Shown: piece after piece, positions 6,778 to 64,000 of the stretch
Layout of the letters: each line of letters begins with the position of its first letter
Position numbering within the stretch: position 1 is the stretch's first letter
The notes under the pieces: model-generated
Databases searched by the model: none
What the model was told of the DNA's origin: nothing
Seen by the model: the letters and a program-made list of their open reading frames with translations, nothing else
DNA from: Omnitrophica WOR_2 bacterium GWF2_43_52
GTDB taxonomy: Bacteria; Omnitrophota; Gorgyraeia; Gygaellales; UBA12090
NCBI GenBank assembly: GCA_001805445.1
Contig: MHGF01000036.1
Coordinates: 7,526 to 71,525, forward strand
DNA: 64,000 nt
Direction: 5' to 3'
Position numbers and translations under genes: made by a program

Positions 6778-6850
6778 GCGGGAGTAGTTCAGTGGTAGAA
6801 CAATAGCCTTCCAAGCTATATATGGGGGTTCGATTCCCCTCTCCCGCTTT
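6778..6850 (+). tRNA. tRNA-Gly (anticodon TCC)
   Basis: Cloverleaf parsed by eye: acceptor GCGGGAG/CTCCCGC, D-stem GTTC/GAAC, anticodon stem ATAGC/GCTAT with loop CTTCCAA (anticodon TCC), T-loop TTCGATT. CCA not encoded. Confidence 0.85.
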
Positions 6851-9887: not shown

Positions 9888-10110
9888 TTAGAATAGCGTA
9901 GGTACAGGAAAGATGATGAGGGGGCGTGCCCCGTACAAAACCTGTAATTTACAGAGCAAAGTTTTGTTCGGGGCGTGCCCCGAACAAATTTTCTGTATAG
10001 GATGTTGATATAAATTAAATTTTATAAAATAGATACCTGGGTATAGTAATTGACTATGGGGGGGCGTGCCCCGTACAAAATTGCTATACTTAGATATAAC
10101 AATTTTGTAC
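9868..10110. repeat. Array of GGGGCGTGCCCCG palindromes, each followed by (T/A)ACAAAA(CCTGTAATT), between the GIY-YIG gene and tRNA-Pro
   Basis: Units at about 9921, 9969 and 10059. The 9-mer CGGGGCGTG is identical to the tRNA-Pro 5' end at 10110. TTTGTTCGGGGCGTGCCCCGAACAAA is itself a long palindrome. Spacing is irregular. Confidence 0.75.
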
Positions 10111-10184
10111 GGGGCGTGGCTCAGTTTGGCTAGAGCGCTTGAATGGGGTTCAAGAGGTCGACGGTTCAAGTCCGTCCGCCCCGA
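10110..10184 (+). tRNA. tRNA-Pro (anticodon GGG)
   Basis: Acceptor CGGGGCG/CGCCCCG, D-stem GCTC/GAGC, anticodon stem CTTGA/TCAAG with loop ATGGGGT (anticodon GGG), T-arm ACGG-TTCAAGT-CCGT, discriminator A. Confidence 0.75.
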
Positions 10185-10249
10185 CTACACTCTTTTAACG
10201 TTTACCCTATTACACCGTTAAATTAATTATTATTGGTTAACGGTGTAAT

Positions 10250-36032: not shown

Positions 36033-36033
36033 A

Positions 36034-36855: not shown

Positions 36856-36858
36856 AAT

Positions 36859-38595: not shown

Positions 38596-38859
38596 GTATA
38601 GGTTTTTTCTATGGTATTTTCTAGGGATACCATAACTTTGTTACTGCTGGCAAGGAATGGATTTTACGGCAAGGGGCGTTTATAATCAAAACACATAAGC
38701 GACAGAAATTATTTCAGCGAAGAAAACCAGAATTATCAAGCCTTCTTCCTGTCGAGCATTCCATACATTAAATTGAAAAGGCGAAAGCCCTGTAATCCTT
38801 TAGGCCTTATCTTGAGTTAGCGCGAGCCTGTAACACAAAGGAAATCCAGAGACTAAAGC

Positions 38860-46053: not shown

Positions 46054-46084
46054 TAGTAAATCCTGTGTAATGTTCTGGCAGCCT

Positions 46085-47995
46085 ATGATGAGCGTAGCTT
46101 TCTTTTTCTTTTTTTTGACTTCTTCGGCCTTGGCAGATACGCTTGAGAGTACGCGCGTCGTGAAGGAGGTTGTAATAAAGAATGTCGTAAGGCCGCTTGA
46201 AGAAGTCTCTATAGAGATTAAAGTCGATATTTCTTTAAAGCAGCTAGAATTCAAAATTCAAGACGCAGCGGGGAGCGTGTATGATAGGCAAAAAGTTGCG
46301 GTTCACGGGGGCGTAGCGAAAACGACCACTTTTGTCGGCGGCGCTATCGGGGTGCATACGTTATCAATATTCTTAAATCAGGAAAAAATAGGTGTAGCGA
46401 ATTTCATGCTTGATCCGGAGACTTTGATACAGACAAAAGGCGGGAGGATTGATTCTTTTCTGGAAGGGTTAAAGTCGCAAGTAGAAAAGGATAGAACTAT
46501 ACATATGGTTAATAATGAGCCGGTTAACCTGTATGCCGTATGGCTTCGAGATCATATTTATGAGATGAAAGGGTACAAGTATTGGGAGAATGATGTTGCC
46601 TCAGGATTCGGCTTTTTTTTAAAAAGGCAGCATCCCAGGGGTTTCTTTTATGAGATAAAAGTCCCCCCCGAAGATCCTCATGTGGCATGTGTTTCTCCTG
46701 AATGGATTAGCCCTGATAAAAAGAATAACTTTATTTTAGTGAGATTAGAAATAGAGGCGGATATTGAGTATTTGATGGTGGAGGCTTTATATACCATATG
46801 GCAGGCAACCGGCAATAGTGTTTTGTTAGAGCCATATTTATTAAAGGTGGAAAAGGGATTGCTGTATCTCATGAGCGACCCTGACAGATGGTCATCTCGG
46901 CATGGTTTGGTCAAGAGGGCATTTACCATAGATACATGGGATTTTACCTATGCTGCCGATACTTGGGATAGAAACATAACAGAAGATACTCCTATGGCAA
47001 TTATGCATGGGGATAACAGCGGAGTTTACTATGCCTGCAGAAAGTTATCGGAACTTTATAGGCTTTGCGGGAATATTCGTAAGTCAAGATACTGGAGAAG
47101 AAAGGCAGAACAGTTTAAAAGAAATACTAACAGGGTTTGCTGGAACGGAAAATTTTATACGCATCAGATTCATTTGGGCAAGATTCCCGATACAGGGCTC
47201 AAAGAAGAAGTGATCTTGAGTTTTAGCAATGTGTATGATATTAATCGCGGCTTGGCAGATCATCAGAAAGCAGTCAGCATCATTAAGGAGTATATTAAAA
47301 GATACAGAGAGCAAAGGAGTGAATATTTTGCGGAATGGTTTAGCATTAGCCCATCGTATGCTGAATTCCCGGGGAATTCTTTCCCGGGGTATACAGCAGG
47401 TAGTTATATTAATGGTGGCATAGCGTCTTTTGTAGCCGGTGAGCTGGCAAAAGCATCCTTTAACCATGGATTTGAGACGTATGGGCTTGATATTATCAAT
47501 CGCCTTTATAGCCTGTGGCAAAAGGATGGAAGAATATATTTTCTCTATACACGAGAGGGTAATGATCAGGGGGGAGGGCCTGAGGCATGGGGAGCTTCAG
47601 CGATTATTTCCGCTTTGATTGAAGGTCTGGCAGGTTTATATGATAAATCTTGTCTATTTAAAAATGTAGAAATATCTCCTCGTTGGGCAGTAAGTAACGA
47701 TAGGTATGCTTGGGTAATAGCGAGCTACGGCGCTTCAAAGGCATATTGCAGTTATATTTATACAATTTCTCCCCAAGGAAATAGTATTACCTTAAAATGC
47801 ACAAAATCAACCCGCGGGGAATATTCTTTTCATATCCTTTTGCCAAGCGGTAAGTTAGCGAATGCGGTTATGTGTAATTCTAGGAAGATTCCTTTTCGGA
47901 TTATAGATATGGAAGGCTCAAAGTATGCTGATTTTAAACTTAACTCTGAAGCGGTTATCCAGGAAATAGTCATATATTTGAAGGATGAGTTCTAA
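46085..47995 (+). CDS. Secreted hypothetical protein, possible (alpha/alpha)6-barrel glycoside-hydrolase-like fold
   Basis: Signal peptide MMSVAFFFFFLTSSALA; W.RD and aromatic-rich motifs weakly reminiscent of GH63/GH15-type toroids. Functional call is weak. The ORF could start at 46040. Confidence 0.35.
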   Translation: MMSVAFFFFFLTSSALADTLESTRVVKEVVIKNVVRPLEEVSIEIKVDISLKQLEFKIQDAAGSVYDRQKVAVHGGVAKTTTFVGGAIGVHTLSIFLNQEKIGVANFMLDPETLIQTKGGRIDSFLEGLKSQVEKDRTIHMVNNEPVNLYAVWLRDHIYEMKGYKYWENDVASGFGFFLKRQHPRGFFYEIKVPPEDPHVACVSPEWISPDKKNNFILVRLEIEADIEYLMVEALYTIWQATGNSVLLEPYLLKVEKGLLYLMSDPDRWSSRHGLVKRAFTIDTWDFTYAADTWDRNITEDTPMAIMHGDNSGVYYACRKLSELYRLCGNIRKSRYWRRKAEQFKRNTNRVCWNGKFYTHQIHLGKIPDTGLKEEVILSFSNVYDINRGLADHQKAVSIIKEYIKRYREQRSEYFAEWFSISPSYAEFPGNSFPGYTAGSYINGGIASFVAGELAKASFNHGFETYGLDIINRLYSLWQKDGRIYFLYTREGNDQGGGPEAWGASAIISALIEGLAGLYDKSCLFKNVEISPRWAVSNDRYAWVIASYGASKAYCSYIYTISPQGNSITLKCTKSTRGEYSFHILLPSGKLANAVMCNSRKIPFRIIDMEGSKYADFKLNSEAVIQEIVIYLKDEF

Positions 47996-47998: not shown

Positions 47999-49303
47999 AT
48001 GAAAGTCCTACTTCTAAAACCATGTTGGCCGTATCCTGTCGGAGATGATTTTATCTATAACCGAATATGGCCTCCTTTATGCTTAGCCAACTGCGCTGCC
48101 TTGTTGCTACGAGAGGGACATACGGTAAGAATATTCGACGCGCATGCAGAGAGGACTCCCGCGGATAAAATTAAAGAACATGTATATGGTTTTGATAAAA
48201 TATTTATAACTTCTTCAGCGTTAGACAGATGGCAGTGCCCAAATCTAAACATAGAGCCTTTTTTACGCGCAGCCCGTCTGATAAGAAAAGAAAACGACGA
48301 ACTCTATGTGATGGGTTATCATGGGACTGTAAATCCTGATGAAATCTTATCGCTGACAGGGGCGAAGGCGATTATTAGGGGGCAGCCAGAAATAGGCGTT
48401 TTAGAGATATGCCAGAATCAAAGTTTATCCCGTATAAAAGGTATCAGTTATAGAAGCAGCGGTAAAATAATATCTACTGCCGAGAGAGCTGTGATAGACT
48501 TGGATACTCTCCCTGTGCCCGCCTTTCACTTGGTTAATTTTAAGTATTATTTTTATGAAATATTAGGGAGCAACTTTGCGTTGTTTGAAGGCTCGCGAGG
48601 TTGTACGCATGGGTGTACATTTTGTTCTAAGGTAATGTTTGGAGTTACCTTTAGGCAGAAATCACCCATGAGGTTAATGGAAGAGATTGATAGAGCAGTC
48701 AGAGAATGTAAGATAAAAACAGGCTATTTTATAGATCTTGATTTTACGCTTAACAAGAAGTGGGTTGAAGAAGTCTGTAGCCTTCTTATAGAAAGAAACT
48801 ATGATTTTGAATGGTGCTGCCAGGCAAGGTTAGATGAAGTTGATGCGCCGCTGCTAAAGAAGATGAAACAGGCAAAGTGCCGGTTAATTCATTATGGCGT
48901 GGAAACAGCCTCTGATAAGATGTTGAGGCTGGCGCATAAAGGCTTAACTACTGAGAGAATAACAGAGGGGATACGATTGACGCAGGAAGCAGGGATTAAA
49001 ACATTGTGCTTCTTTATGATAGGGTTATCATCTGATAGTAGGGAAGAAATGAGGCAGAATATGGCGTTTGCCCATAGATTAAATCCTACGTACCTGCATT
49101 ATCATCTTGCCGTTTCTTATGGCGCATCCTGTATTCAGGAGAATAGCCTTAATCTTCCATGCGATGTGAGCAGGCGAATGATTAAGCACGCCATTATGAA
49201 ATTCTATCTTCGCCCAAGGTATATAATCCAGCGTCTGAAGCAGAAGGAAGATAGAAAAGCCATGCTCAGGCAGTTGAAACTATTATATGCATATATACGA
49301 TGA
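47999..49303 (+). CDS. B12-binding domain radical SAM protein (class B radical SAM)
   Basis: N-terminal cobalamin-binding Rossmann-like domain; radical SAM triad GCTHGCTFC; 434 aa. Confidence 0.8.
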   Translation: MKVLLLKPCWPYPVGDDFIYNRIWPPLCLANCAALLLREGHTVRIFDAHAERTPADKIKEHVYGFDKIFITSSALDRWQCPNLNIEPFLRAARLIRKENDELYVMGYHGTVNPDEILSLTGAKAIIRGQPEIGVLEICQNQSLSRIKGISYRSSGKIISTAERAVIDLDTLPVPAFHLVNFKYYFYEILGSNFALFEGSRGCTHGCTFCSKVMFGVTFRQKSPMRLMEEIDRAVRECKIKTGYFIDLDFTLNKKWVEEVCSLLIERNYDFEWCCQARLDEVDAPLLKKMKQAKCRLIHYGVETASDKMLRLAHKGLTTERITEGIRLTQEAGIKTLCFFMIGLSSDSREEMRQNMAFAHRLNPTYLHYHLAVSYGASCIQENSLNLPCDVSRRMIKHAIMKFYLRPRYIIQRLKQKEDRKAMLRQLKLLYAYIR

Positions 49304-51084
49304 ACATAAAGAGCGGCTTGTTGGAAAAGAAAAGCATGGCATTGAGTATTTTTAGTATTGCAGCCATTATCTTTTGTTCCCCTATTTTTCATAACTTTAG
49401 CTATTTAGGGCAGATGGATTGGGACCAGTTTACCTTTTGGAATGCGGTTCCCAGAAAAACGGTCCTGACGTATCATCAATTTCCTCTTTGGAATCCTTAT
49501 GGTAACGGCGGAAATGTTCTCTTAGCCCATCCCCACTCCTCATTTTTATCTCCCTTTTACCTTTTCGTATTATTTTTTGGCCCGGTAACCGGGATAAAAT
49601 TGGAAATTATAGTTCTTTTAATTATCGGAATGCTTGGGATGTTTTTATTGTCTAACCATATGGGGGGGAAAGGAATATCCTCATATGCGCCATCTTTTGT
49701 TTTTATGTTAAGCTCTATTTATCCGCTGCATTTAACTGAAGGCCATGTGGAGTGGTTAGGGATGGCATTTGTCCCATGGTTATTTTTATCTTATCTAAAG
49801 AGTATAGATAATAAGAACTATGTATATGTGGCACTATTACTTTTTGCGGTAATGGTATTAGGGGGTGGCGTTTATATCTCAGTAATAATGGCTGCATTTC
49901 TTACGCTCTATTCATTTGTTATGATTGTGCGAGAAAAAAGAATCGTGTGGCTTAGAAATATAGCTATTATCTTCGCGGGCGTTTTCCTGCTCTCTTCGAT
50001 TAAATTGTTCCCTATGCTTGAGTTTCTAACTCATTCCCCCAGAACTATTGAATCTACGGAAAATATAAGCCCGTTGTTACTTCCTACTATTTTGTTAGAT
50101 AGAAATCAAGGTGGTTTATATGCTCAGACTAAATGGAGTGCTCCTGATAAGAAGGCTTTTGTCGGGAACAATGTAGTGATAGATTACGGTTGGCATGAAT
50201 ATGGCGCATATATAGGAATTATCCCCCTGCTGTTATTTGCCGGGGGCATATTTTTTAGCTTTAAAAAACAATGGCCATTCCTCTTGATTGGAATTATTTT
50301 TCTGATACTGAGCTTGGGGCGAGGTTTTCCCATTGATCTATGGCGGATACTGCATTTTTTACCAATCTATGATTCCCTCCATGTACCTTCAAGATTAATC
50401 CTTATTTTTATTTTCGTTCTTTCCATCTTTTCCGGTTTATGTTTATCAAAAATTGAAGAAAACATGAAAAAAATGAATACAGGCAGGGCAGGAGTATTTC
50501 TGATAGTTTTGTTCATTTTTTTAGATTTATATTTAGTGAATGGCTTTATTTTAAAGCAGGCATTTGTAATTGCACCAATAAGAGTTGAATATAACGCAGA
50601 ATTTAAGCAAAGGTATGATTCCGTTAATTTTTATCCCGCTATTAGCCGCAGCGCTATGTATCCCATCTTTTTAAGCAATAGCGGGATACTTGACGCGTAT
50701 GAAGTGATAAATGTTAAAAAGGGAAATGTTCTTGCAGTTAAGGATCCTGGGTATAGAGGGGAGGTTTATTTAGCTGACGGCAAAGGTAGCGCAACGATTA
50801 CTTCTTTTTCTCCCAATAGAATAGTTGTAAATGTTAACGCTCATGACGTGGATACTTTAGTTTTGAACCAGAATTATTATAAAGGTTGGAGGCTAAAAGG
50901 TTGTCATGATCCCAGAGTAAGATCTTTTAATGGCCTTATTGCAGCACATGTTGATTCTTCGGATAAGAAAGCAATATTTTTTTATATGCCAAAGAGTTTC
51001 ATCATAGGGTGCCTTGTGACCGGTGCAAGCATAATAACAATATTTTTATTTTTGTTAAAGAGTAAACTGGCAAGCAATGATTAA
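49300..51084 (+). CDS. Polytopic membrane protein, GT-C-like (YfhO-like) candidate glycosyltransferase or polymerase
   Basis: About 12 TM helices; conserved FPLWNPYGNGG loop; C-terminal soluble beta-rich domain; 594 aa. Confidence 0.45.
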   Translation: MNIKSGLLEKKSMALSIFSIAAIIFCSPIFHNFSYLGQMDWDQFTFWNAVPRKTVLTYHQFPLWNPYGNGGNVLLAHPHSSFLSPFYLFVLFFGPVTGIKLEIIVLLIIGMLGMFLLSNHMGGKGISSYAPSFVFMLSSIYPLHLTEGHVEWLGMAFVPWLFLSYLKSIDNKNYVYVALLLFAVMVLGGGVYISVIMAAFLTLYSFVMIVREKRIVWLRNIAIIFAGVFLLSSIKLFPMLEFLTHSPRTIESTENISPLLLPTILLDRNQGGLYAQTKWSAPDKKAFVGNNVVIDYGWHEYGAYIGIIPLLLFAGGIFFSFKKQWPFLLIGIIFLILSLGRGFPIDLWRILHFLPIYDSLHVPSRLILIFIFVLSIFSGLCLSKIEENMKKMNTGRAGVFLIVLFIFLDLYLVNGFILKQAFVIAPIRVEYNAEFKQRYDSVNFYPAISRSAMYPIFLSNSGILDAYEVINVKKGNVLAVKDPGYRGEVYLADGKGSATITSFSPNRIVVNVNAHDVDTLVLNQNYYKGWRLKGCHDPRVRSFNGLIAAHVDSSDKKAIFFYMPKSFIIGCLVTGASIITIFLFLLKSKLASND

Positions 51085-54174: not shown

Positions 54175-55626
54175 ATGCATAAACCGAATAAGGTTGTTTT
54201 TATCAGGTTCCCAAAAAACTTACAAAAAAAATCCCATCCGACTGAAACGGTTTGGCCTTTTTCCATAGGCATCGCAGGGACTATACTAAAGAGATTGGGC
54301 TTTTCCATAAAGATAATTGACCTTCAGGTTGAAGAAAATCAGAGATATGACAATGCCATGCAAGCTATTCTGAGCCTTGATATGGATATGCTTTTTGTCC
54401 AATATGAAACGCTTTCACTTTGTTTGGCTTCGTCTTTTTGCGCCCAGTTAAGAAAGGTAAAAGAAAATATTATTGTCATTGGCTTTGGACAGCATGCTTC
54501 TGCTCTTCCTCGTGAACTTATTGAGAGCCATGGGGCAGATATCTGTATCACTACTGACCTTGAGTTTGTTATAGAGGAATTAGTTCATGCTATTCAAAAT
54601 GATAGTCTCGTAAAACTTAAAAATATCGCTTACAAGGATTGCGAGAAGGTTATTATTAAAGAAAGCGCTGTGCCTGATTTTCATCCGGATTCTCTTCCAT
54701 TTGTTGATCCATCCCTTTTTCAGCTTACTCGATACAGGCGAAAAAAGTTTCCCAAGCCATTCTTTTGGGGAAAGGACTGGGGTTTCGTCAGAACAAGCTT
54801 AGGGTGTCCCTACCATTGTATATTCTGTTCGCCTCTTCTAAGGCATTCCATAGAGAAGGCATACAGGGCCCATTCAATAGGGTATATTTATAGGCAAATT
54901 AAATATTACAAAGAAGAGTTTGGGTTAAGGACTTTTTCTATGGAAGACGATATATTCTCCATTGATGAAGACAGGACCCTGCGTCTTTGCGATGCGCTCA
55001 GAAGCCTAAGAATAAGATGGGTTGTTGATGGGGCCAGGGCCGATAGGTTATCCGCGGCGTTATTAAAAATGATGAAGCAGGCCGGATGTTATGGAATAGG
55101 TATTGGTATCGAGTCAGGAAGTCAGAATATTTTGGATAGTTTAGGAAAGCAGCAAAACAGGGAAAAGATAAAAGAATGCGCCCTTACTATAAAAAAAACA
55201 GGCATGCTGTTGGTCGGGTACGTTATGGTGGGAGCTCCCCGTGAGACCGAGCATGAGGTAGAAGAAACCTTTCGCTTGATACGTGAAATAGCTCCCCATG
55301 TCCTCTACGCGCACTATTTTATCCCTTACCCAGGCTCACAGGCATATGAACTATTTAAAGAAAAGCTTTTTCTTGCGCATATGACGCATTATAGATACCC
55401 TCGAGTGAATTTTAGCAATATGGATGCTATAGTATTAAGGAATTGCATGAAAACGCTCTATGCCCGCTATTATTTATCTTTTAGCTACCTAAAAGAATAT
55501 ATAACAGGGAGATTGAAATATGCGCTCTTTGATATACATGAGGTAATGTTACTTAAAGATGCGATTGTATTTATTATGCGTGGAAATCAAAAAGATGAGA
55601 CTATCGAAAAAATTGAAAGCTTGTAA
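54175..55626 (+). CDS. B12-binding domain radical SAM protein
   Basis: Triad GCPYHCIFC; 483 aa. Confidence 0.8.
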   Translation: MHKPNKVVFIRFPKNLQKKSHPTETVWPFSIGIAGTILKRLGFSIKIIDLQVEENQRYDNAMQAILSLDMDMLFVQYETLSLCLASSFCAQLRKVKENIIVIGFGQHASALPRELIESHGADICITTDLEFVIEELVHAIQNDSLVKLKNIAYKDCEKVIIKESAVPDFHPDSLPFVDPSLFQLTRYRRKKFPKPFFWGKDWGFVRTSLGCPYHCIFCSPLLRHSIEKAYRAHSIGYIYRQIKYYKEEFGLRTFSMEDDIFSIDEDRTLRLCDALRSLRIRWVVDGARADRLSAALLKMMKQAGCYGIGIGIESGSQNILDSLGKQQNREKIKECALTIKKTGMLLVGYVMVGAPRETEHEVEETFRLIREIAPHVLYAHYFIPYPGSQAYELFKEKLFLAHMTHYRYPRVNFSNMDAIVLRNCMKTLYARYYLSFSYLKEYITGRLKYALFDIHEVMLLKDAIVFIMRGNQKDETIEKIESL

Positions 55627-56629
55627 GGAGATTTTTAAGATAAAGATGTTCGGGAAGAGAATGCCTTTAGCAGTGACCTGGAGTATTACCGATAGATGTA
55701 ATTTTCAGTGTTACTATTGCGGCAGGTGGAAGATGAGTACGCAGGAGCTCTCAACAGATGATGCGATGGCGCTTATATCGGGTCTTGCAAACGCGCGGTG
55801 CCTGAGAATAGTCTTTGGGGGAGGGGAACCGTTATTGAGAAAGGACATAGGGCTATTAATTGATTTCTGTAAGAAAAAGGGGATTTCTACCGGCCTGATC
55901 TCAAACGGTTATTTTCTCGCAGAAAGGATAGACGAAATAAGGAATATTGATACGTTGGCATTGAGCATTGACGGAATTGGAGGAGTGTGCGATTTTATAA
56001 GGGGTACGTCAGGAGCCTATGAAAATGTCGTGGCGGCCATTAAAATAGCGAGGAAGAAAAAAATAAGAGTAATCCTGAATACTGTTTTAACAAGGTATAA
56101 TCTGGATCAGGTAGATTTGATTATAGAGTTTGCCACGAAACATGGTGCAGGGGTGATGTTTGGCCCTGTGAGCTCTATTCACTTCGGAGGCAGCGCAATA
56201 GATTCCCTAGTACCCGGCAAATCGGAATTTCGAAATATCATTGATACATTAGTTGGATACAAAAAAGATAAAAAACCTATACTTAATTCTCTTGCCGCGT
56301 TACATTATATGCATGATTGGCCATATTATAAGCAGATACCTTGTTATGCGGGAAGGGTTTTTTGTCATATTTCAGCAAACGGCAGTTTTTATCCCTGCGT
56401 GGCGCTGGAGGGCAGCGTTACGGCATCTTGCCTGCGTCATGATTTTAGTGAAGTTCTGGAGGCAGTTTCGCATAAGACAAGGCATTGTAATGGATGTTGG
56501 TGCACAGGGACATTAGAGTTTAACCAAATGTTATCCCTCAAACTAACGGCATTGATGAGTATTTTACATTTCGCTACATCTCCGCCAAAAATTAGGAACC
56601 GAAGAATTCATGAGCCATGTAAGATTTAA
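55595..56629 (+). CDS. Radical SAM/SPASM-domain protein, paralog 1 of 5
   Basis: PLAVTWSITDRCNFQCYYCG; GGGEPLL; C-terminal Cys cluster CYAGRVFCH...YPC...CNGCWCTGTLEFN. Start chosen at MRLSKKL by alignment with paralogs. Confidence 0.75.
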   Translation: MRLSKKLKACKEIFKIKMFGKRMPLAVTWSITDRCNFQCYYCGRWKMSTQELSTDDAMALISGLANARCLRIVFGGGEPLLRKDIGLLIDFCKKKGISTGLISNGYFLAERIDEIRNIDTLALSIDGIGGVCDFIRGTSGAYENVVAAIKIARKKKIRVILNTVLTRYNLDQVDLIIEFATKHGAGVMFGPVSSIHFGGSAIDSLVPGKSEFRNIIDTLVGYKKDKKPILNSLAALHYMHDWPYYKQIPCYAGRVFCHISANGSFYPCVALEGSVTASCLRHDFSEVLEAVSHKTRHCNGCWCTGTLEFNQMLSLKLTALMSILHFATSPPKIRNRRIHEPCKI

Positions 56630-56695
56630 TGATTTCTGCGGAAGAGGCATGATAGGTAATGAGGAAAGGATGAGGCAGGCCTTTATCGGGTAGTT

Positions 56696-58276
56696 ATGGT
56701 AAAACGTGATACGGTGAAATTTAATGGTGGTTATCAAAGAATATCTGTTTATGCCATTCTTTTCTTGGGGATAGGTGGGTATACTGTGTTCTTTACCGCT
56801 TTGCAAGTAATAAAATACAGGACCTTGTTTACTCTTAATCCAATTAGTTTAGCAGGCTTCAACCAAGTGGCAATTAATACCGCCAGAGGAATCCCTTTTT
56901 ATTGTAGCTTTAGTAATGATGTCTTTGCCAATAATCATTTCCATCTCATTTTTATTCTCCTTGCATTAGCGTATAAAATATATCCCCATATCTATACTTT
57001 ATTTTTTTGCGTAAGTTTTGCTTTAGGAATAGGAGGAGTTGGTATCTATTTGATAACAAAGAAGCTCTTTTCTAGTATTCGGATGGGTGTATTCTTCTTT
57101 ATCGTATATTTACTCTCGCCCGTTTTGCATTTTATAAATTTTGTTGATTTTAGGCCAATTGTATTGAGCATACCTTTTTTTATCTTTATGGTTTACTTCT
57201 ATATGGAAGAAAAATTTATTCCTTTCTTTGTTTTTTCATCATTATTTCTTATGTGCCAGGAACATTTGGCATTTTGCTTGATGATGTTCGGAATATCTTC
57301 TATTTTCCGGAGAAAAAGCCTTCAATGGATACTTATGCCAATTATCTATGGGGGAGCATGGTTCATAGTCACGGCAACAATTATTTTGCCTTCTCTCGGG
57401 TATGAAATCTATAGGCCCCTTGAGGATTACTTCCGCGGGGAAAGAAACAGTTTGGCGCACGGCTGCCTTTGGATACTGGAAAATCCTCTGGCAGCATTGA
57501 AAATTATGTTTTCTTCAAGCCATATTTCTTATTTGGCAATGATAGTTAATCCCGCTATTTTTTCCATGGCAATCTTCTCCCCCGAAATATTGGTTTTCGC
57601 CTTTCCAACTTTCTTGGAGTTGTTGTTGCGTACTGATGCGTACCAGTTTACTCCTGATTTAGCAACTACCAGTATTTCTCCTATTTTTGTTTGCCTATTT
57701 CTGGCGCTTGTCCATAGTTATAAGAAAATATTCACAGCCGTTAATTCTTTGAAGTTACCAAGTGCTATACAAATAGGTTTTAAGAAAATAATATTATTAG
57801 CTTTAGTTTCATGGACATGTACAGGAAATCTTGGAAATAATTTAATCTTTGATAAGAATAGCAGGGAGAAAGGAGTGGATATTGCGGAAAAATTCAAAAG
57901 AGCCACCAATATGTTTGACCCAGTTTTTTATACCATCGAGGAGGATGATTATCTGGCATGGCGTTTGATTTCAGCAATCCCTGTTGAGGCTTCAGTCGCT
58001 ACAAGAGGCGATTTGTTGCCTGCTTTGTCGAATCGTGCCAGGCTCTATGAGTTTGGCAGAGTCGGTTTTCAGAAAAAAGAAAAAGAGGTGGGAGTAGGAA
58101 GTTACCTTTTACCTGACTATATAATTTTTAGAAGGAAAACGTGTTTTTACGGAGCATATAACGATGAGATCGATGACGCAATGGCGCTTGATTTTGCTCA
58201 TAGGCTCATAAACGAGCATACGTATAACAGTGTTGTTGAAAATGATACCTTTGTGTTTTTGAAAAGAAATCCTTAG
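56696..58276 (+). CDS. Polytopic membrane protein (DUF2079-like), paralog of the partial ORF at 62489
   Basis: About 12 TM helices; C-terminal conserved block MFDPVFYTIEEDDYLAWRLISAIPVEASVATRGDLLPALSNRARLYEFG shared with the downstream paralog. Confidence 0.5.
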   Translation: MVKRDTVKFNGGYQRISVYAILFLGIGGYTVFFTALQVIKYRTLFTLNPISLAGFNQVAINTARGIPFYCSFSNDVFANNHFHLIFILLALAYKIYPHIYTLFFCVSFALGIGGVGIYLITKKLFSSIRMGVFFFIVYLLSPVLHFINFVDFRPIVLSIPFFIFMVYFYMEEKFIPFFVFSSLFLMCQEHLAFCLMMFGISSIFRRKSLQWILMPIIYGGAWFIVTATIILPSLGYEIYRPLEDYFRGERNSLAHGCLWILENPLAALKIMFSSSHISYLAMIVNPAIFSMAIFSPEILVFAFPTFLELLLRTDAYQFTPDLATTSISPIFVCLFLALVHSYKKIFTAVNSLKLPSAIQIGFKKIILLALVSWTCTGNLGNNLIFDKNSREKGVDIAEKFKRATNMFDPVFYTIEEDDYLAWRLISAIPVEASVATRGDLLPALSNRARLYEFGRVGFQKKEKEVGVGSYLLPDYIIFRRKTCFYGAYNDEIDDAMALDFAHRLINEHTYNSVVENDTFVFLKRNP

Positions 58277-58311
58277 GGTTTTTCTTTAGCGTAGCACGTT
58301 GCTAAATAAAA

Positions 58312-59364
58312 ATGTTTTATTCTGCGAGCATGGATGTAAAGGGATTGGCCAACCTGAAGGATAAGATGCGGCGTATTGTATCCTTTTCTTTGCCTATTTT
58401 GAAAGCGCGGTTTCTTAAGCGGAAAATACCGTTATTTGTAGGCTGGGAATTGACTAATCGTTGTAATCTGAAATGTAGATATTGCGGTGTCGCTCACGCG
58501 GTAAGGGGAGGGGAATTAGACACGCAACGCATTTTGTTAATGGTAGATGGATTAAAACTGTTAGGTACACGGTTTATCAGTTTTACCGGCGGCGAGCCTT
58601 TGTTACGGCCTGATATAGGTTTAATTATAGATTATTGCAGGCAAAAGAATGTTTTTACTTCTCTCAATTCAAATGGAATTCTGGTGAAACAAAAGATTTC
58701 TGAAATTAAGAATGTTAATTGCGTCTGTCTTAGTTTAGATGGAGCAGAGGAAATCCATGATTCTATACGAGGAGCGGGGGTCTTTAAAGCGGTAATAGAG
58801 GCTGCCAGGATTATACAAAGAACAAACATCCCGTTAAAATTTTTTGTCACATTAACAGGTATTAATGTAAATCAAATTGATTTCCTAATAAACATAGCTA
58901 TGGAATATAATGCGGTTTTAGTCTTCCAGCCATCGGTACAAAATAAGCTTTATTCTAACGAGGTTAATGAGATATGCCTCTCGCGCGCAGAGAACGAAAT
59001 GGTTTTTAGACAATTGATATGCCGCAAGAGAAGACTAAGGAAAATGGTGATAGCGAATTCATACATGAATTTAGCGCATCTTAGCCATTGGCCTCATCCT
59101 CGATATATCCGTTGCGCGTCAGGGCATATCACGGGCCGTATCAAGAGTAACGGCGATTTTGCCCCATGCAACCGTTATGCGCTTCAAACAGCCGCAGGCG
59201 CGTCTCTGAGCCCGATGGATTTGAAGAGAAAATACCTTGCTCTTCAGAATATTTCCTGCGAAGAATGTTGGTGCGCTAATCGGGTAGAATTAAACTTGCT
59301 CTTTGCCCTGCAGTTAGAGCCAATTATTAATAGCATTAGGTATTTAGCGAGCAATAAAAAATAG
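58312..59364 (+). CDS. Radical SAM/SPASM-domain protein, paralog 2
   Basis: IPLFVGWELTNRCNLKCRYCG; FTGGEPLL; C-terminal CxxCWC. Confidence 0.75.
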   Translation: MFYSASMDVKGLANLKDKMRRIVSFSLPILKARFLKRKIPLFVGWELTNRCNLKCRYCGVAHAVRGGELDTQRILLMVDGLKLLGTRFISFTGGEPLLRPDIGLIIDYCRQKNVFTSLNSNGILVKQKISEIKNVNCVCLSLDGAEEIHDSIRGAGVFKAVIEAARIIQRTNIPLKFFVTLTGINVNQIDFLINIAMEYNAVLVFQPSVQNKLYSNEVNEICLSRAENEMVFRQLICRKRRLRKMVIANSYMNLAHLSHWPHPRYIRCASGHITGRIKSNGDFAPCNRYALQTAAGASLSPMDLKRKYLALQNISCEECWCANRVELNLLFALQLEPIINSIRYLASNKK

Positions 59365-59435
59365 AATGAAAAAGCAGCTATGCAATGAATGCTGGCAGAC
59401 AATAGCAGGGGTGAATCCTGCTAAGGAGGCTGTGC

Positions 59436-60440
59436 GTGAAATTGCGGAATAAGTTGAAGATCGCCAAAGAAACCTTAGAAGTAAAATTTCTTAAAAAGAA
59501 AATTCCTATAGCGGTGACATGGGCGATTACCAATACCTGTAATTTGCAATGTAGATATTGCGGAAGGTGGAAAACAAATTCTGATGAGCTGTCAACGCAG
59601 GAGGCGAAGATAATTATCGAACAGCTTGCTCATGCTGGGTGCATGAGAATATCTTTTTTAGGAGGAGAACCTTTATTGAGAAAGGATATTGGAGATTTAA
59701 TTAATTTCTGTAAGGCGAAAGGTATTTCTATCAGTTTGATTTCGAATGGATATTTTGTTGCAGAAAAAATAAGCAAAATAAGCAATATTGATTTGCTGGA
59801 ATTAAGCATCGATGGAATTAATGATGAGGCAAATTTCTTAAGAGGCAAGGGTCTGTATGAAAGAGTGCTCACCGCGTTTAACTATGCTCGCGGAGCTGGG
59901 GTAAAAACGGTATTCAAGACGGTGTTGACAAAATATAATTTACATCACATAGGATCTATCCTGGAATTTGCCGTTAAGTGCGAAACGGGGGTTATGTTTG
60001 GCCCTGTAAGTTCTCTTCATTTCGCGAATGAAGAAATAAAGGAATTATTCCCCGATAGGGGAGAATTCAGAAGGGCTATAGAAATGCTTATGTGTGAAAA
60101 GAAACGAGGCAAGCCTATAATTAATTCAATGTATGCCTTACGGTATATGAGGGATTGGCCATATCCGCATCAGTGCCCTTGTTTTGCCGGCAGGGCGTTT
60201 TGCCATATAGCGCCGAATGGCATGGTGTATCCTTGTGCTGCTTTGGAAGGCAAAATAGAACCTTTCGTTTTTAAGGAATATGATTTTAAGAATATACTTC
60301 GTATTCTTTCCCGCGCTGATTTTAAGTGTGATGGCTGCTGGTGCAAGGGGACATTAGAATTTAATTACCTCCTTGCGTTGAAGCCATCTGCGCTACTATC
60401 GCTCTCAGATTGGATGGTAGTCTATAAAGAATTGATGTAG
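59436..60440 (+). CDS. Radical SAM/SPASM-domain protein, paralog 3
   Basis: IPIAVTWAITNTCNLQCRYCG; LGGEPLL; CPCFAGRAFCH...YPC...CDGCWCKGTLEFN. Confidence 0.75.
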   Translation: MKLRNKLKIAKETLEVKFLKKKIPIAVTWAITNTCNLQCRYCGRWKTNSDELSTQEAKIIIEQLAHAGCMRISFLGGEPLLRKDIGDLINFCKAKGISISLISNGYFVAEKISKISNIDLLELSIDGINDEANFLRGKGLYERVLTAFNYARGAGVKTVFKTVLTKYNLHHIGSILEFAVKCETGVMFGPVSSLHFANEEIKELFPDRGEFRRAIEMLMCEKKRGKPIINSMYALRYMRDWPYPHQCPCFAGRAFCHIAPNGMVYPCAALEGKIEPFVFKEYDFKNILRILSRADFKCDGCWCKGTLEFNYLLALKPSALLSLSDWMVVYKELM

Positions 60441-60445
60441 AAATT

Positions 60446-61441
60446 ATGGTGATGACATTAAGGAAGAAGATTGGGTTCGCGATCCCATTGTTAAATTTTC
60501 TTTTATTTAAGAAGAAAATCCCTTTTTTCATCGGATGGATGTTAACGGCACGGTGCAATAAGCAATGTAAATATTGCAGTATTTGGGATAGACGGGAGGC
60601 CGAATTGGATACCGGCACTATTATAGCTGTCGTTAGACAATTATCGCGGTTAGGAACCAAGTTTATTTCATTTTCAGGCGGCGAACCATTGTTAAGAGAT
60701 GATATAGGGGAAATAATCGATTGTGTTTCGCACCATAAAATGTATGTAAAAATCAATTCAAACGGGGCGTTGTTTGCCCAAAAGATACACAGGCTCAGGA
60801 AATTGAACGAAATAAAGCTCAGCCTTGATGGCCCAGAGGAAATACAGGATGAATTACGAGGAAAGGGTTCTTACCGGGAAGCTATAGCTGCGGCTACTGA
60901 CGCTAAAAGAAATATGATCAAGGTCAGTTTTAACACAGTTCTCTCAGCGCATAATCTTACCTGCCTTGGTTTTATATTGGATATCGCTAGGAAATTTGAG
61001 GCAAAAGTCACTTTTCAACCAGCAACTCCTTTTTTACTGGGAGGCGATAAAGTGAATCCCGTTACGCCTTTGCAGAATGACTACAGACGGGCAATAGCCA
61101 TACTCATCAATACCAAGAAAATGAATAAGCATATAGCTAATTCATTTTCAGGGTTAGCGTATCTTTATCGCTGGCCCTATGCGGTAAGAAAAATGCATTG
61201 TTACGGAGGGCGCTTTGGCTGCCGCATAGAGGTTAATGGTGCTCTTTCCCATTGCGGCGTATATCGTCATAAGGAAGATAGTGGTAATTTACAGAATTGC
61301 AAGCACTCAGATTTTAAACTCGCGTTCCAGAGGCTCGCGGAGATTTATTGTAATGAGTGCTGGTGCGCTCCGGATATCGAGATAAATTCTCTAATTTCGT
61401 TGCAACCGGAAGTTTTATGGAATAGTTTATTTTCTGGTTAG
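60446..61441 (+). CDS. Radical SAM/SPASM-domain protein, paralog 4
   Basis: IPFFIGWMLTARCNKQCKYCS; SGGEPLL; CYGGRFGC...CNECWC. Confidence 0.75.
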   Translation: MVMTLRKKIGFAIPLLNFLLFKKKIPFFIGWMLTARCNKQCKYCSIWDRREAELDTGTIIAVVRQLSRLGTKFISFSGGEPLLRDDIGEIIDCVSHHKMYVKINSNGALFAQKIHRLRKLNEIKLSLDGPEEIQDELRGKGSYREAIAAATDAKRNMIKVSFNTVLSAHNLTCLGFILDIARKFEAKVTFQPATPFLLGGDKVNPVTPLQNDYRRAIAILINTKKMNKHIANSFSGLAYLYRWPYAVRKMHCYGGRFGCRIEVNGALSHCGVYRHKEDSGNLQNCKHSDFKLAFQRLAEIYCNECWCAPDIEINSLISLQPEVLWNSLFSG

Positions 61442-61453
61442 GAATACTGCGCT

Positions 61454-62461
61454 ATGAGATTTCAGGACACTATGAGCTATTTAATCAGGTTATTGAAGAT
61501 CAAATTCTTTAATAATGGATTTCCCTTTGTTGTAAGATGGGATATTACGGCGCGTTGCCCCATGCAATGCAGATATTGCGATATATGGAAGCTAAAGATA
61601 AAAGAGTTAAATACCGCCACAATCCTGAGAATTATAGATGAAATGGCGCAGGAGGGAGTAAAAAAAATTTCTTTTTCCGGAGGGGAACCTTTGCTGAGGG
61701 AAGATATCTGCGAGATCGTGCATTATACCAAGGCAAAAGGAATATCCGCAGAGATTAATTCTACAGGGTATTCATTTGCCGATAAGGCGGAAAGATTGAA
61801 ATCTCTGGATTTAATAAAACTAAGCCTTGATGGCCCAAAAGAAATACATGATGTAGTACGAGGCAGGGAAGGGGCGTATGATTCTGTTATTGATGCTGCT
61901 TTGGCTGCGAAGAAACAAAGGATACCATTTAGGTTTTGCGTTACCCTGTCAGGGTATAATATCCAGTATGTTGGCTTTTTACTGCAGTTAGCCAGAGATT
62001 GTGAAGCGAAGATTGTTTTTCAGCCGTTAAAAGATATCAGGTATTTGAAGCATTGCAGTTTTATCTTTAAAACGGAGGAACAGCTTTTCCCTGCTCCTGA
62101 GCAGTTTCAGAAAGCGATACATATGCTTTTAAAATGTTGTAAAGAAGAAAGGCGCCTGATAAGCAATAGCCCTCAAACTTTGAGGCATATATATTATTGG
62201 CCAAAGTATGCAAAGCTGAAATGTTGGGCAGGCAAGATTTTTTGCATGATAAGTCCATCCGGCGAGATTTCGCCCTGTGATCGTCTTTTTTATGATGTGC
62301 AACTGCCTAACTGCGCGCAGACATCCTTTCGTCAAGCAGTTACAATGATGCCGCGTTTGCCTTTTTGTGAAGGGTGTGGTTTTTGGGGGTCATTGGTATT
62401 GAATTACGCTGCCAATTTTAAAGCTGATTTGGAATTGCTGAGAAAGGCAGCTCAATGCTGA
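61454..62461 (+). CDS. Radical SAM/SPASM-domain protein, paralog 5
   Basis: FPFVVRWDITARCPMQCRYCD; SGGEPLL; CWAGKIFC...CEGCGFWG. Confidence 0.75.
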   Translation: MRFQDTMSYLIRLLKIKFFNNGFPFVVRWDITARCPMQCRYCDIWKLKIKELNTATILRIIDEMAQEGVKKISFSGGEPLLREDICEIVHYTKAKGISAEINSTGYSFADKAERLKSLDLIKLSLDGPKEIHDVVRGREGAYDSVIDAALAAKKQRIPFRFCVTLSGYNIQYVGFLLQLARDCEAKIVFQPLKDIRYLKHCSFIFKTEEQLFPAPEQFQKAIHMLLKCCKEERRLISNSPQTLRHIYYWPKYAKLKCWAGKIFCMISPSGEISPCDRLFYDVQLPNCAQTSFRQAVTMMPRLPFCEGCGFWGSLVLNYAANFKADLELLRKAAQC

Positions 62462-62488
62462 AAGACAGAGTGAACTATAAAAACTAAT

Positions 62489-64000
62489 ATGGCAAGGGTA
62501 AAATCTGTTAATGGTAGCTTTCATTATTCGGTGTTTATGCTTGTTTTTTTTATTGCTGCCTATACAGGTTTTTTTTCCTATTTATCGGTTTTAAAGTATA
62601 AAGCGTTTTTTTCCCTCGCGGGAGATGATCTGGCCATAAGTAATAATATTCTTTGGCATAGCGCGAAAGGTAATTTCTTTTACCAGAGTATAGGAGAGCA
62701 CCTTTTAGATTTTCACGCGGGGTTTTTTTATTTTTTCCTTTCCGCAGCGTATAGGCTCTATCCGCACATCCCTACCCTTTTTGTATTTGAACATTTCGCA
62801 TTGGCATTGGGAAGCATCCCTCTGTACCATATTGGGAAGAAATTATTTAATTCAAGGCGCATTGCTTTCGTATCTGCTGTAGCGTATCTTTTTTCTAATC
62901 ATCTCCATCAACTCAGTTTTGCGGATCAGAATCCTATGGTAGCATTTTCAGTAACATTTTTCCTATGCGCCTTTTATTTCTTTTACAAAAGAAATTTAGC
63001 AGGATTTGTTATCTTTGCTTTATTAACGATGGCATGCCGTGAGGATGCCGCTTTCACAATTGCCGCCTTTAGCCTCTATGCTTTCCTGAAAAGAACTGAT
63101 TTAAGATGGAAAGTTATCCCTGGATTGCTTGGGGGAGGGTATTTTTTGGTTTTTTGGCATTTTCTATCCCCTTTTTTGAATTACAGCCCGCACAATCATC
63201 CATATATATGGAATTTTTTTGGTGAAAATCAAAACAAGTATACCTTGAGTCAGCTGGTATTAAATAATTTTACTCATTTTATTCAGCGTATTATTCGTAT
63301 TGATTCTTTCAGAACGATAGTAAATTTTTTTATTCACCCGGTATATTGCGTGTTTTTTTTGTTTTCGCCTCTCATTTTTGTGTTAAGCTTGCCAACGTTG
63401 CTCGCAATTCAGCTGTCTGCCCAAAAGTATTTTGTCAGTCTCGAGTCAGTACACCATTTTGCCTTAGGGGTGCCGGTATTCTTTTTGGCCAGTTTATCCG
63501 GGATTTATAACATCGCTGCATTATTACAGAAGAATGGGATTCTCCGCAGCCATTCAGCTAAAAACAAAATGCTTTGGTTGTTGGTTATCTTGTTTTCTCT
63601 ATTTCAGGTATCTTCCAATTTCGGGAGGAATATCCGTTTACCCTATGGAGGATTGTACCGTGAGGATTTAGATATAGCCGACCATCGTTTTGTTGCAGCA
63701 AAAAATATGTATGACCCCGTCTTTTACCGACAAGATGAGCACGACAAGAAGGCATGGGATCTTATCACAATGATACCAACAGAGGCATCGGTTTCTACAT
63801 CTAAGACTTATCTCGCAGCATTATCTTCAAGGGATAAAATTTTTTATTTTGGCACAAAAAGAGAGAGCAACGACTCTGAGGGGCATGATTTTGACGTTGA
63901 CTATATTTTTTTGAATAAAAATAATGATTATTCAGGGTTTGGCGGAATAGAAATAGGCCATTCGGTTGTTGCTCAAAAAATGCCTATACTGCGTCAGAGA
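62489..64000 (+). CDS. Polytopic membrane protein (DUF2079-like), 3'-truncated by the window end; paralog of 56696-58276
   Basis: Open frame from ATG 62489 to the window end. Shares VLKYKAFFSLAGDDLAI (like VIKYRTLFTLNPISLAGF) and NMYDPVFYRQDEHDKKAWDLITMIPTEASVSTSKTYLAALSSRDKIFYFG blocks with the paralog. Confidence 0.6.
   Translation, partial: MARVKSVNGSFHYSVFMLVFFIAAYTGFFSYLSVLKYKAFFSLAGDDLAISNNILWHSAKGNFFYQSIGEHLLDFHAGFFYFFLSAAYRLYPHIPTLFVFEHFALALGSIPLYHIGKKLFNSRRIAFVSAVAYLFSNHLHQLSFADQNPMVAFSVTFFLCAFYFFYKRNLAGFVIFALLTMACREDAAFTIAAFSLYAFLKRTDLRWKVIPGLLGGGYFLVFWHFLSPFLNYSPHNHPYIWNFFGENQNKYTLSQLVLNNFTHFIQRIIRIDSFRTIVNFFIHPVYCVFFLFSPLIFVLSLPTLLAIQLSAQKYFVSLESVHHFALGVPVFFLASLSGIYNIAALLQKNGILRSHSAKNKMLWLLVILFSLFQVSSNFGRNIRLPYGGLYREDLDIADHRFVAAKNMYDPVFYRQDEHDKKAWDLITMIPTEASVSTSKTYLAALSSRDKIFYFGTKRESNDSEGHDFDVDYIFLNKNNDYSGFGGIEIGHSVVAQKMPILRQR

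Follow-up and report, generated by a model that had tools for sequence, protein, structure and literature searches.

Five radical SAM genes at the distal end of the window

The stretch of DNA analyzed here, termed the window, comprises 64,000 nucleotides of contig MHGF01000036.1 from Omnitrophica WOR_2 bacterium GWF2_43_52. Its distal end harbors five tandem genes for radical S-adenosylmethionine (rSAM) enzymes, R1 to R5, together with two genes for DUF2079 membrane proteins, M1 and M2. Four rSAM genes of the B12-type, B1 to B4, are located upstream. The array is composed as follows.

55595-56629, + strand: R1, predicted twitch-type rSAM paralog of 344 amino acids (aa); PF04055, E-value 2.6e-23; sister of R3, bootstrap 100
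56696-58276, + strand: M1, DUF2079 polytopic membrane protein, predicted GT-C-like fold; PF09852, 1.4e-33, 117.1 bits
58312-59364, + strand: R2, predicted twitch-type rSAM paralog of 350 aa, without the optional Cys at R3 position 256
59436-60440, + strand: R3, predicted twitch-type rSAM paralog of 334 aa, the protein used for the structure model
60446-61441, + strand: R4, predicted twitch-type rSAM paralog of 331 aa, with an ortholog in locus L025, bootstrap 95
61454-62461, + strand: R5, predicted twitch-type rSAM paralog of 335 aa, the most widespread subfamily; clade bootstrap 99
62489-64000 (cut by the window end), + strand: M2, DUF2079 membrane protein, predicted to be GT-C-like; PF09852, 2.6e-36, 126.2 bits

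The five paralogs, which had been recognized in an earlier note made from the DNA letters, are real: all are located on the plus strand at the starts given there, and all match PF04055 (E-values 1e-22 to 1e-26; 80-92 bits at a cut-off of 29.5). They share 29-54% mutual identity and 31-53% identity to R1; the gaps between neighboring genes of the array measure 5-71 bp. In their alignment 53 columns are invariant, among them those of CxxxCxxC, GGEPLLR and four C-terminal cysteines. With C35, C39, C42 and GGEP invariant and a beta/alpha barrel in the R3 model, R1 to R5 belong to the rSAM superfamily; moreover, all five genes are intact, in line with the note's statement that none is pseudogenized. 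The motifs described in the note are approximate. CxxxCxxC and GGEPLL are common to all five proteins, but the extended N-terminal motif deviates in R4 (I in place of V) and in R5 (CP in place of CN, without the leading K/R), and only R1 and R3 carry the tail CxxCWCxGTLEFN unchanged. In R2 and R4, CxxCWC is followed by another tail, and the tail of R5, CEGCGFWGSLVLN, lacks the third cysteine. The N-terminal cationic helix of R1 to R5 was considered as a membrane anchor; its hydrophobic moment is 0.21-0.49.

R3 starts with GTG, preceded by AAGGAGG 7 nucleotides (nt) upstream. For R1 an alternative ATG is present at 55559, and the start varies in public annotations, yielding 356, 344 or 327 aa; the alignment of the paralogs favors 55595. 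Correspondingly, the 3'-end of B4 overlaps the start of R1 by 32 nt (start at 55595) or 68 nt (start at 55559). The sequence of R5 is found in identical form on more than 20 public contigs, including the Omnitrophota metagenome-assembled genome GCA_003499645.1 and Rifle groundwater assemblies. There are no more than five copies in the array, since no further rSAM gene is located downstream of M2 in the source contig, which answers whether it continues beyond the window.

A twitch-type enzyme with one predicted auxiliary cluster

The conservation of cysteines was counted across 45 and then 144 family sequences, using R3 numbering. In the set of 144, C35, C39, C42 and C249 are present in 100% of the sequences, C267 in 99%, C298 in 98% and C301 in 97%, and G262 is conserved in 98%. 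Further cysteines occur at positions 256 (65%) and 303 (56%), leaving a possible second cluster site in some members. The SPASM domain is defined by the seven-cysteine motif CX9-15GX4C-gap-CX2CX5CX3C-gap-C and binds two auxiliary clusters; the twitch domain is a truncated SPASM domain with a beta-hairpin, a helix alpha-2', cysteines before the hairpin, after it (Gx4C) and after alpha-2', and one auxiliary cluster (PMC6231123). Among the 144 sequences neither the CX5CX3C segment nor the terminal cysteine is found, and just C249, C267, C298 and C301 are conserved. Likewise, the Pfam SPASM model PF13186 scores 18.2 bits in R3 and R5, below its cut-off of 21.5, and does not match R1, R2 or R4.

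The AlphaFold model of R3 (pLDDT 92, pTM 0.91) places C249 before a hairpin formed by strands 255-258 and 263-265, followed by G262x4C267, a helix comprising residues 284-293 and C298xxC301. Structure prediction had been proposed in the earlier note as a way to count the auxiliary clusters; the model combined with the cysteine pattern yields one. As only four C-terminal cysteines are conserved, we classify R1 to R5 as predicted twitch-type enzymes with one, probably fully Cys-ligated auxiliary cluster as in BtrN beside the [4Fe-4S] cluster that would cleave SAM, and not as SPASM-type enzymes, as they had been called before.

None of R1 to R5 reaches the cut-off of an NCBIfam equivalog model among PTO1314, MftC, PqqE, NirJ/AhbC/AhbD, MoaA, HpnH, Tes and viperin. 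The best match is TIGR03961 (PTO1314) with 82-124 bits vs a cut-off of 306, and the scores for MftC (72-102 vs 265), PqqE (82-98 vs 381) and HpnH (53-65 vs 225 bits) are equally far below. R1 to R5 are also not assigned to the BtrN-type rSAM dehydrogenases, which are defined by homology to BtrN and the two-electron oxidation of a secondary alcohol. For named rSAM proteins, the values tabulated in this context are SkfB 25.0, SuiB 23.6, anSME 23.5, viperin 23.2, PqqE 22.3, MoaA 22.0, DesII 19.3 and BtrN 14.8.

The five copies are an old assembly

A neighbor-joining tree was calculated from 76 family members and 12 named SPASM outgroups with 100 bootstraps, as the earlier note had proposed in the form of a phylogeny against named families. 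R1 to R5 are monophyletic in 0/100 bootstraps, which rules out a recent five-fold amplification. Only R1 and R3 are a local duplicate (bootstrap 100); the remaining copies have diverged from each other and do not represent a single local expansion. R4 groups with its ortholog in another Omnitrophota genome, L025 (bootstrap 95), and R5 with orthologs in L025, L026 and L007 (bootstrap 99), whereas R2 groups only weakly with L009_9009 (bootstrap 45). L025 retains the gene order B3 - R4 - R5. Moreover, 15 of 30 related loci carry 2-4 R copies within 10 kb on each side. Because of the lack of monophyly, the R4 and R5 orthologs elsewhere and these multi-copy loci, the array must have been assembled long ago from four or more subfamilies, and several copies per locus are normal for the R family; the view of an unusual tandem amplification is not tenable.

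The family separates from the 12 generic SPASM outgroups as a monophyletic group with a support of 29%, so that no sharply bounded clade is claimed. In an exhaustive profile search, more than 150 clusters formed at 50% identity reach 330 bits or more, the best 150 of them along their whole length. At E <= 1e-30 the R profile matches 11,111 proteins, a count that includes related SPASM/twitch families. The R clade is therefore large, and it has no name, characterized member or curated model.

B12-type radical SAM enzymes are the conserved partners of the R family

The four B12-type genes, which the earlier note had overlooked together with an rSAM fusion gene described below, are located just upstream of the array.

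47999-49303, + strand: B1, B12-binding-domain rSAM of 434 aa; PF04055 and weak PF02310
51077-52594, + strand: B2, B12-binding-domain rSAM of 505 aa
52591-54039, + strand: B3, B12-binding-domain rSAM of 482 aa
54175-55626, + strand: B4, B12-binding-domain rSAM of 483 aa

PF02310, the model for an N-terminal B12-binding domain, reaches 61 bits in B3, above its cut-off of 32.1, whereas B1, B2 and B4 stay at 21-30 bits. The closest PDB sequence to B3 is AprD4, a sugar-deoxygenating rSAM (2.7e-25). Since AprD4 presumably lacks cobalamin, cobalamin use by B1 to B4 is not to be assumed. The best NCBIfam match is HpnJ for B2 to B4, and BchE followed by HpnJ for B1, all far under their cut-offs; HpnJ scores range from 131 to 175 bits, the latter for B3, vs a cut-off of 578.

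A collection scan yielded 79 distinct loci (L007-L085) with R homologs, distributed over Omnitrophota, Elusimicrobiota, Planctomycetota, Desulfobacterales, Myxococcota, Magnetococcales, Nitrospirota and other phyla, as well as archaeal groups including Methanosarcinales, Nanohalarchaeota and Aenigmatarchaeota. For a census of neighbors, 30 core loci, whose R match reaches 200 bits or more, were set against 25 control loci of distant SPASM relatives. B12-type rSAM genes are present in 25/30 core but in 6/25 control loci (p 1e-5). Large membrane proteins of at least 420 aa with at least 7 transmembrane (TM) segments are found in 19/30 core loci (1.01 per 10 kb) vs 2/25 controls (0.09 per 10 kb; p 2e-5), an enrichment of about 11-fold near the R family. 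DegT is a neighbor in 14/54 loci (core and mid) and in 0/25 controls (p 0.0035). DUF2079 is limited to 2/30 core loci and absent from the controls (p 0.49). Thus, the conserved partner of the R family is the B12-type rSAM and not DUF2079. The general association with membrane proteins noted earlier holds, but the suggested one-to-one pairing of individual rSAMs with DUF2079 proteins is ruled out by the census.

LPG_synthase_TM/HpnL-like genes occur in 10/30 and a small GT2 gene (~246 aa) in 6/30 core loci, besides genes for PMT_2, AsnB-like and tetratricopeptide repeat (TPR) proteins; homologs of GTC594, a membrane protein of the island (see below), are present in 5 core loci. Orthologs of B3 (44-61% identity) directly adjoin R5- or R4-type genes, and the R5/B3 adjacency is seen in other phyla. 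Further homolog contigs with Pfam annotation contain YfhO and DUF2079, UbiA, or GT2/GT4, SDR and PMT_2; one more carries nucleoside diphosphate (NDP)-sugar epimerases/dehydratases, Peptidase_U32 and a DegT gene directly upstream of the R gene.

Several of these loci provide observations in their own right. In Desulfobacterales, cassettes with the order B3 - B12 - R4 - LPG_synthase_TM - B12 are found, in which the gene for the LPG_synthase_TM protein (MprF/HpnL-type, flippase-like) directly follows the R4-type gene; instances of LPG_synthase_TM are located at L019 10988-11968 and in 9 other core loci. At L087 (7706-11011) a B12-type rSAM gene, a UbiA prenyltransferase gene and the R homolog are followed by at least 5 large TPR proteins, an order suggestive of a lipid-linked (polyprenyl-phosphate) substrate in one subfamily or more. 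The 21-kb locus P0019 comprises 6 B12-type and 5 other rSAM genes, 2 Peptidase_U32 genes, 2 NDP-sugar epimerases/dehydratases and a Glf-like flavoprotein, and its DegT gene overlaps the start of the R homolog. The Peptidase_U32 family includes O2-independent hydroxylases, and we regard P0019 as a still denser anaerobic sugar-tailoring cluster.

Gene fusions point in the same direction. P0199 consists of a DegT domain (274 bits, 29% identical to the DegT protein of the island) joined to an R domain with 39% identity to R4 (E 2e-69), and P0255 of a GT2 domain (40% identical to the GT2 of the island, E 5e-115) joined to two rSAM domains. The natural double-rSAM fusions P0237, P0253 and P0247 contain two rSAM/SPASM units per polypeptide, suggesting that pairs of such enzymes act together.

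The array is embedded in a polysaccharide island

The array belongs to a co-directional island of more than 40 kb, in which all genes from 32580 to the window end are located on the plus strand with gaps of -32 to +88 bp for most. In addition to R1 to R5, B1 to B4, M1 and M2, it contains the following features.

32580-41912, + strand: core polysaccharide assembly and export, with GT4, a WecA-like PNPT protein (PF00953), a Glf-like flavoprotein, Wzm, Wzt with Wzt_C, GT2 and GT4
42171-44609, + strand: 812-aa fusion of rSAM, full SPASM and C-terminal GT4 domains; PF04055, PF13186 with 42.8 bits, PF00534 with 119.6 bits
44698-46053, + strand: GT4 glycosyltransferase
46040-47995, + strand: 651-aa protein with a single N-terminal anchor and no Pfam match
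49300-51084, + strand: GTC594, membrane protein with ~12 TM segments, weakly AftD GT-C-like (PF11847, 4e-5, sub-threshold)

A glycan pathway of the Wzm/Wzt type is indicated by PF00953, PF00534/PF00535, ABC_tran with the glycan-binding C-terminal domain Wzt_C (109 bits) and a Wzm-like permease, the latter assigned via NF050109 at 53.6 bits, below its cut-off of 380. The island comprises four GT4-type glycosyltransferases, one of them within the fusion, at least six polytopic GT-C-like proteins and ten rSAM domains within 22 kb. The rSAM-SPASM-GT4 fusion, which lies outside the R family, represents a physical joining of radical and glycosyl-transfer chemistry. In the source contig, M2 is followed in order by a 616-aa membrane protein with ~15 predicted TM segments, PMT_2, DegT, a 618-aa single-anchor protein and a protein with ~10 predicted TM segments, the last two being about 620-640 aa long. 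Both the 651-aa protein and the 618-aa protein (L001 17360-19216) carry a single N-terminal anchor and match no Pfam or NCBIfam model; they may be periplasmic glycan-processing proteins.

At the start of the island (32.58 kb) the GC content drops from ~0.44 to ~0.39. The preceding 32 kb encode housekeeping functions, including DnaG, RpoD, ValRS, UvrB, BirA and CoaX. The GC skew is positive across the whole window, and all large genes are located on the plus strand. A scan for tRNAs and Rfam families revealed neither a riboswitch (e.g., cobalamin) nor a tRNA at the island boundary; tRNA-Gly(TCC) at 6778-6848 and tRNA-Pro(GGG) at 10110-10185 belong to the housekeeping part and are unrelated to the island.

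In a second strain (L004), the stretch from B3 through R5 and most of M2 shows 98% identity. Past the 3' part of M2 (~63.9 kb on), D616 is absent, and PMT_2 and DegT share 86% nucleotide identity with L001; the next genes encode a D640-like protein (52% aa identity) and YfhO. Because the two strains are 98% identical before this point and divergent after it, the comparison implies a recombination breakpoint at the 3'-end of M2 and a variable GT-C cassette, which fits the hypervariable polysaccharide cassettes reported for Omnitrophota.

A possible GT-C-like fold of M1 and M2

With scores above the PF09852 cut-off of 28.2 bits, M1 and M2 are members of DUF2079. They are paralogs, as the earlier note had stated, with 31% identity (E 3e-59); full-length M2 comprises 524 aa and ends in the source contig at the window equivalent of position 64063. 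The two genes do not bracket the array as described there, since M1 sits inside, between R1 and R2. The DUF2079 model is weak (pLDDT 62), because the word-indexed homolog search with M1 returned 5 matches only, probably swamped by low-complexity TM words. Nevertheless, the best 18 Foldseek matches of this weak model are all GT-C proteins (E 1.5e-6 to 3e-3, TM-score 0.35-0.49), namely the lipid-phosphate-sugar transferases ALG12, DPY19, STT3/PglB, ArnT and ALG9. Searched with the DUF2079 profile, PDB sequences gave a single marginal match, ALG12 at E 0.23. The model suggests a GT-C-like fold, as had been proposed for the membrane proteins. A literature search on DUF2079 found no papers.

GT-C enzymes are characterized by a polytopic N-terminal TM module and by a catalytic acidic residue within their first extracytoplasmic loop. 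An aspartate in the first loop is conserved in 8/9 DUF2079 sequences, including M2 (GDDLAISNN), and by analogy it may be catalytic. In M1 the corresponding site at residue ~55 carries a serine (PISLAGFNQ), although the closest homolog P0122 keeps the aspartate (GGDMADYNQ). As the first-loop Asp is replaced, M1 may be catalytically altered or inactive.

A proposed role in oxygen-independent sugar tailoring

Based on gene content and order, cysteine pattern, predicted fold, co-occurrence, fusions and phylogeny, we propose, with a probability of roughly 0.6, that R1 to R5 are cytoplasmic, oxygen-independent carbohydrate-tailoring enzymes of a surface-polysaccharide island, which feed a strain-variable envelope glycan. 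According to this model, the WecA-like transferase and the GT2/GT4 enzymes would build a lipid-linked glycan that would be exported by Wzm/Wzt, and GT-C-fold enzymes (the two DUF2079 proteins, the AftD-like protein, PMT_2 and others) would decorate it outside the membrane from lipid-phosphate-sugar donors. Each R enzyme, together with the B12-type rSAMs (AprD4/HpnJ-like) and DegT, would abstract a hydrogen from a C-H bond of a sugar and then oxidize or rearrange that position. A likely case would be the conversion of a secondary alcohol to a ketone, in which the auxiliary cluster would accept the electron; the ketone could then be transaminated, epimerized or deoxygenated, so that several unusual sugars would result. 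Each of the five diverged paralogs would have its own substrate or ring position, and it is still plausible, as the earlier note held, that the array acts on a family of related substrates or carries out serial modifications.

We infer a sugar as the substrate of the R enzymes, and likewise its carrier state, which may be nucleotide-linked, lipid-linked or polymeric, as well as their exact chemistry. Because of the twitch cluster and the fusion and adjacency to DegT, BtrN-like alcohol oxidation feeding DegT would be the most specific mechanistic guess. Lipid-linked sugars are attractive substrates in view of the LPG_synthase_TM, small GT2, UbiA and GT-C neighbors and the precedents of HpnJ and Cds.

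Several points weigh against this proposal. The family lacks a characterized member, all matches to named NCBIfam models are far below cut-off, and the nearest named families by hidden Markov model (HMM) are peptide and cofactor enzymes (PTO1314, MftC, PqqE, NirJ/AhbD). DegT accompanies no more than a quarter or so of the related loci, and the census rests on crude open reading frame (ORF) calling, a simple TM predictor and loci that are not phylogenetically independent. Furthermore, the LPG_synthase_TM, UbiA and HpnJ-like neighbors would also fit a lipid substrate.

A more far-reaching version, which we consider rather doubtful, is that the pair of R-type and B12-type rSAMs constitutes a widespread and ancient anaerobic sugar-editing module, shared by bacteria and archaea and acting on polyprenyl-phosphate sugars, with chemistry new to envelope glycans and with products that serve as bespoke donors for dedicated GT-C transferases. 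If so, this chemistry could comprise the oxidation or amination of unactivated positions, C-methylation, deoxygenation, or the ring contraction of a hexose to a cyclitol, and the five paralogs and four B12-type enzymes would together determine several new monosaccharides of a single strain-variable surface polymer.

Among the alternatives, all of which are weakened by missing defining features, the lipid explanation survives best, although we regard it as unlikely. Here, the target of the R and B12-type enzymes would be a membrane lipid or polyprenol carrier, modified in its hydrocarbon part or its head group, as with Tes/Mss, Hbs/Hgm, Grs, HpnH/HpnJ or Cds. Clusters of SPASM/twitch and B12-type rSAMs are known for the modification of glycerol dialkyl glycerol tetraethers (GDGTs; hbs-hgm-grs), and Hbs homologs occur in Omnitrophota (10.1101/2023.10.20.563219). 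The HpnJ matches of B1 to B4, the LPG_synthase_TM genes in a third of the core loci, the UbiA gene between the B12-type rSAM and the R homolog of L087, and the distribution of the family over archaea and anaerobic bacteria agree with this view. However, Tes, Mss and Hbs are absent from the window, the HpnJ scores remain far below cut-off, the DegT and GT2 fusions and the NDP-sugar enzymes indicate sugar chemistry, and the island is a classic Wzm/Wzt glycan locus. The R proteins are not Hbs, since they lack its N-terminal extension (COG4001, ~100 aa) and possess four instead of 7-8 auxiliary cysteines. Moreover, HpnJ and Cds themselves work on lipid-linked sugars (PMC13459092), and this part of the explanation merges with the proposed sugar tailoring.

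The earlier note had termed the paralogs maturase-like, and enzymes that introduce cross-links or epimerizations into a peptide or protein, like PqqE, MftC, SkfB, AlbA or anSME, are a second alternative, to which we assign only a small chance. The best named HMMs do include the mycofactocin maturase, PqqE and sactipeptide maturases (E 1e-20 to 1e-29), and arrays of several rSAM genes occur in loci for peptides that are synthesized by ribosomes and modified post-translationally (RiPPs). Nonetheless, all scores are far under the curated cut-offs, the seven-cysteine SPASM motif is absent, and the rSAM core begins at residue ~25, so that the ~24 aa before the barrel leave no space for a RiPP recognition element (RRE) or a PqqD domain. 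The ORFs scanned in the island encode no PqqD, no peptidase and no peptide exporter, and the neighbors over 30 loci are glycan and not peptide genes. The search for a precursor peptide revealed just four small intergenic ORFs on the plus strand (42024, 54073, 56610 and 59366), none of them Cys/Gly-rich or repeated. All four were rejected as precursors; those at 56610 and 59366 overlap the end of R1 and the start of R3, respectively. The latter (59366-59452, + strand, ATG start, 28 aa, MKKQLCNECWQTIAGVNPAKEAVREIAE) spans the gap between R2 and R3 and is the sole Cys-containing small ORF in the array; as R3 has a strong Shine-Dalgarno sequence, this ORF is probably noise.

That the R proteins are tetrapyrrole or cofactor enzymes of the NirJ/AhbC/AhbD or MoaA kind, placed in the island by chance, is highly improbable: the models of NirJ, NirJ2, AhbD, AhbC and MoaA match at E 1e-17 to 1e-31, and BlsE is itself 35% identical to NirJ (PMC3715490), but the scores amount to 60-108 bits vs cut-offs of 284-650, genes for haem, sirohaem or molybdopterin are found neither in the window nor in the related loci, and an operon with five diverged copies is at odds with a single cofactor step.

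Implications

Taken together, the R family is an uncharacterized but large family in a known kind of role. The array noted before is real, and the GT-C-like nature of DUF2079 and the multiplicity of substrates stand as reasonable readings; the SPASM type, the maturase function, the unusual amplification and the DUF2079 pairing do not. In Omnitrophota, Elusimicrobiota, Planctomycetota, Desulfobacterota, Myxococcota and several groups of archaea, the R family is tightly linked to B12-type rSAMs, sugar aminotransferases, glycosyltransferases and GT-C enzymes, which suggests that anaerobes commonly make unusual envelope sugars by radical chemistry. Until now, rSAM sugar chemistry has been documented mainly in antibiotic pathways (BtrN, DesII, AprD4, BlsE) and for lipid head groups (HpnJ, Cds). 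Genome-mining tools that call any cluster with a SPASM-like rSAM a RiPP locus could misannotate such islands. For DUF2079, a concrete context emerges as a probable GT-C enzyme of a variable surface-glycan cassette.

Comparison with known systems

In its layout the island resembles mycobacterial arabinogalactan synthesis, in which WecA, Glf and Wzm/Wzt are followed by the GT-C enzymes Aft/Emb, which use decaprenyl-phosphate-arabinose made by UbiA and DprE1/E2. Both systems have a PNPT protein, a Glf or Glf-like protein, a galactan-type Wzm/Wzt exporter and many GT-C or predicted GT-C-like enzymes that need purpose-made lipid-phosphate-sugar donors. They differ in organism, glycan and GT-C families, and the donor is tailored by flavin/NADH enzymes in mycobacteria, whereas rSAM enzymes would do so here.

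Three radical systems were compared as well. BlsE, the cytosylglucuronate decarboxylase of blasticidin S synthesis (PDB 7vob), is only 16% identical to the R proteins; the 2013 study describes a typical [4Fe-4S] rSAM and does not mention an auxiliary cluster, whereas the R family has four auxiliary cysteines. BlsE also acts in a nucleoside-antibiotic pathway, and no link to a uronate or decarboxylation is evident at the R island. AprD4, a B12-domain rSAM sugar 1,2-diol dehydratase, and DesII belong to actinobacterial antibiotic pathways and display low identity, with no evidence of the same regiochemistry. Hbs/Hgm, the H-GDGT bridge synthase and its B12-type rSAM methylase, are comparable in the clustering of a SPASM/twitch with a B12-type rSAM, in multi-rSAM operons and in the presence of the pair in archaea and anaerobic candidate phyla including Omnitrophota. 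In contrast to the R proteins, Hbs carries the COG4001 domain and 7-8 auxiliary cysteines, and it clusters with tes/mss instead of glycan genes.

Another related system is hpnH-I-J-K-L/Cds. An rSAM, a B12-type rSAM (HpnJ), a GT2 (HpnI) and an LPG_synthase_TM-type membrane protein (HpnL) constitute four gene types that recur near the R family. Differences to the hopanoid hpn genes are the low HpnJ and HpnH scores given above and the absence of squalene/hopene genes; the lipid carrier at the R island would be a polyprenol or the glycan. For HpnJ and Cds, contraction of a hexose into a cyclitol on a lipid-linked sugar has been proposed (PMC13459092).

Butirosin synthesis follows a matching pathway logic. 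BtrN is a twitch rSAM with a four-cysteine auxiliary cluster that oxidizes a secondary alcohol of a carbohydrate-like ring. The resulting ketone is aminated by BtrS, an aminotransferase of the DegT family. Correspondingly, DegT is either joined to an R homolog in one protein (P0199) or encoded right next to one, and the cysteines of the R proteins follow the topology of BtrN, with one preceding the hairpin, another following it and two more behind helix alpha-2' (PMC6231123).

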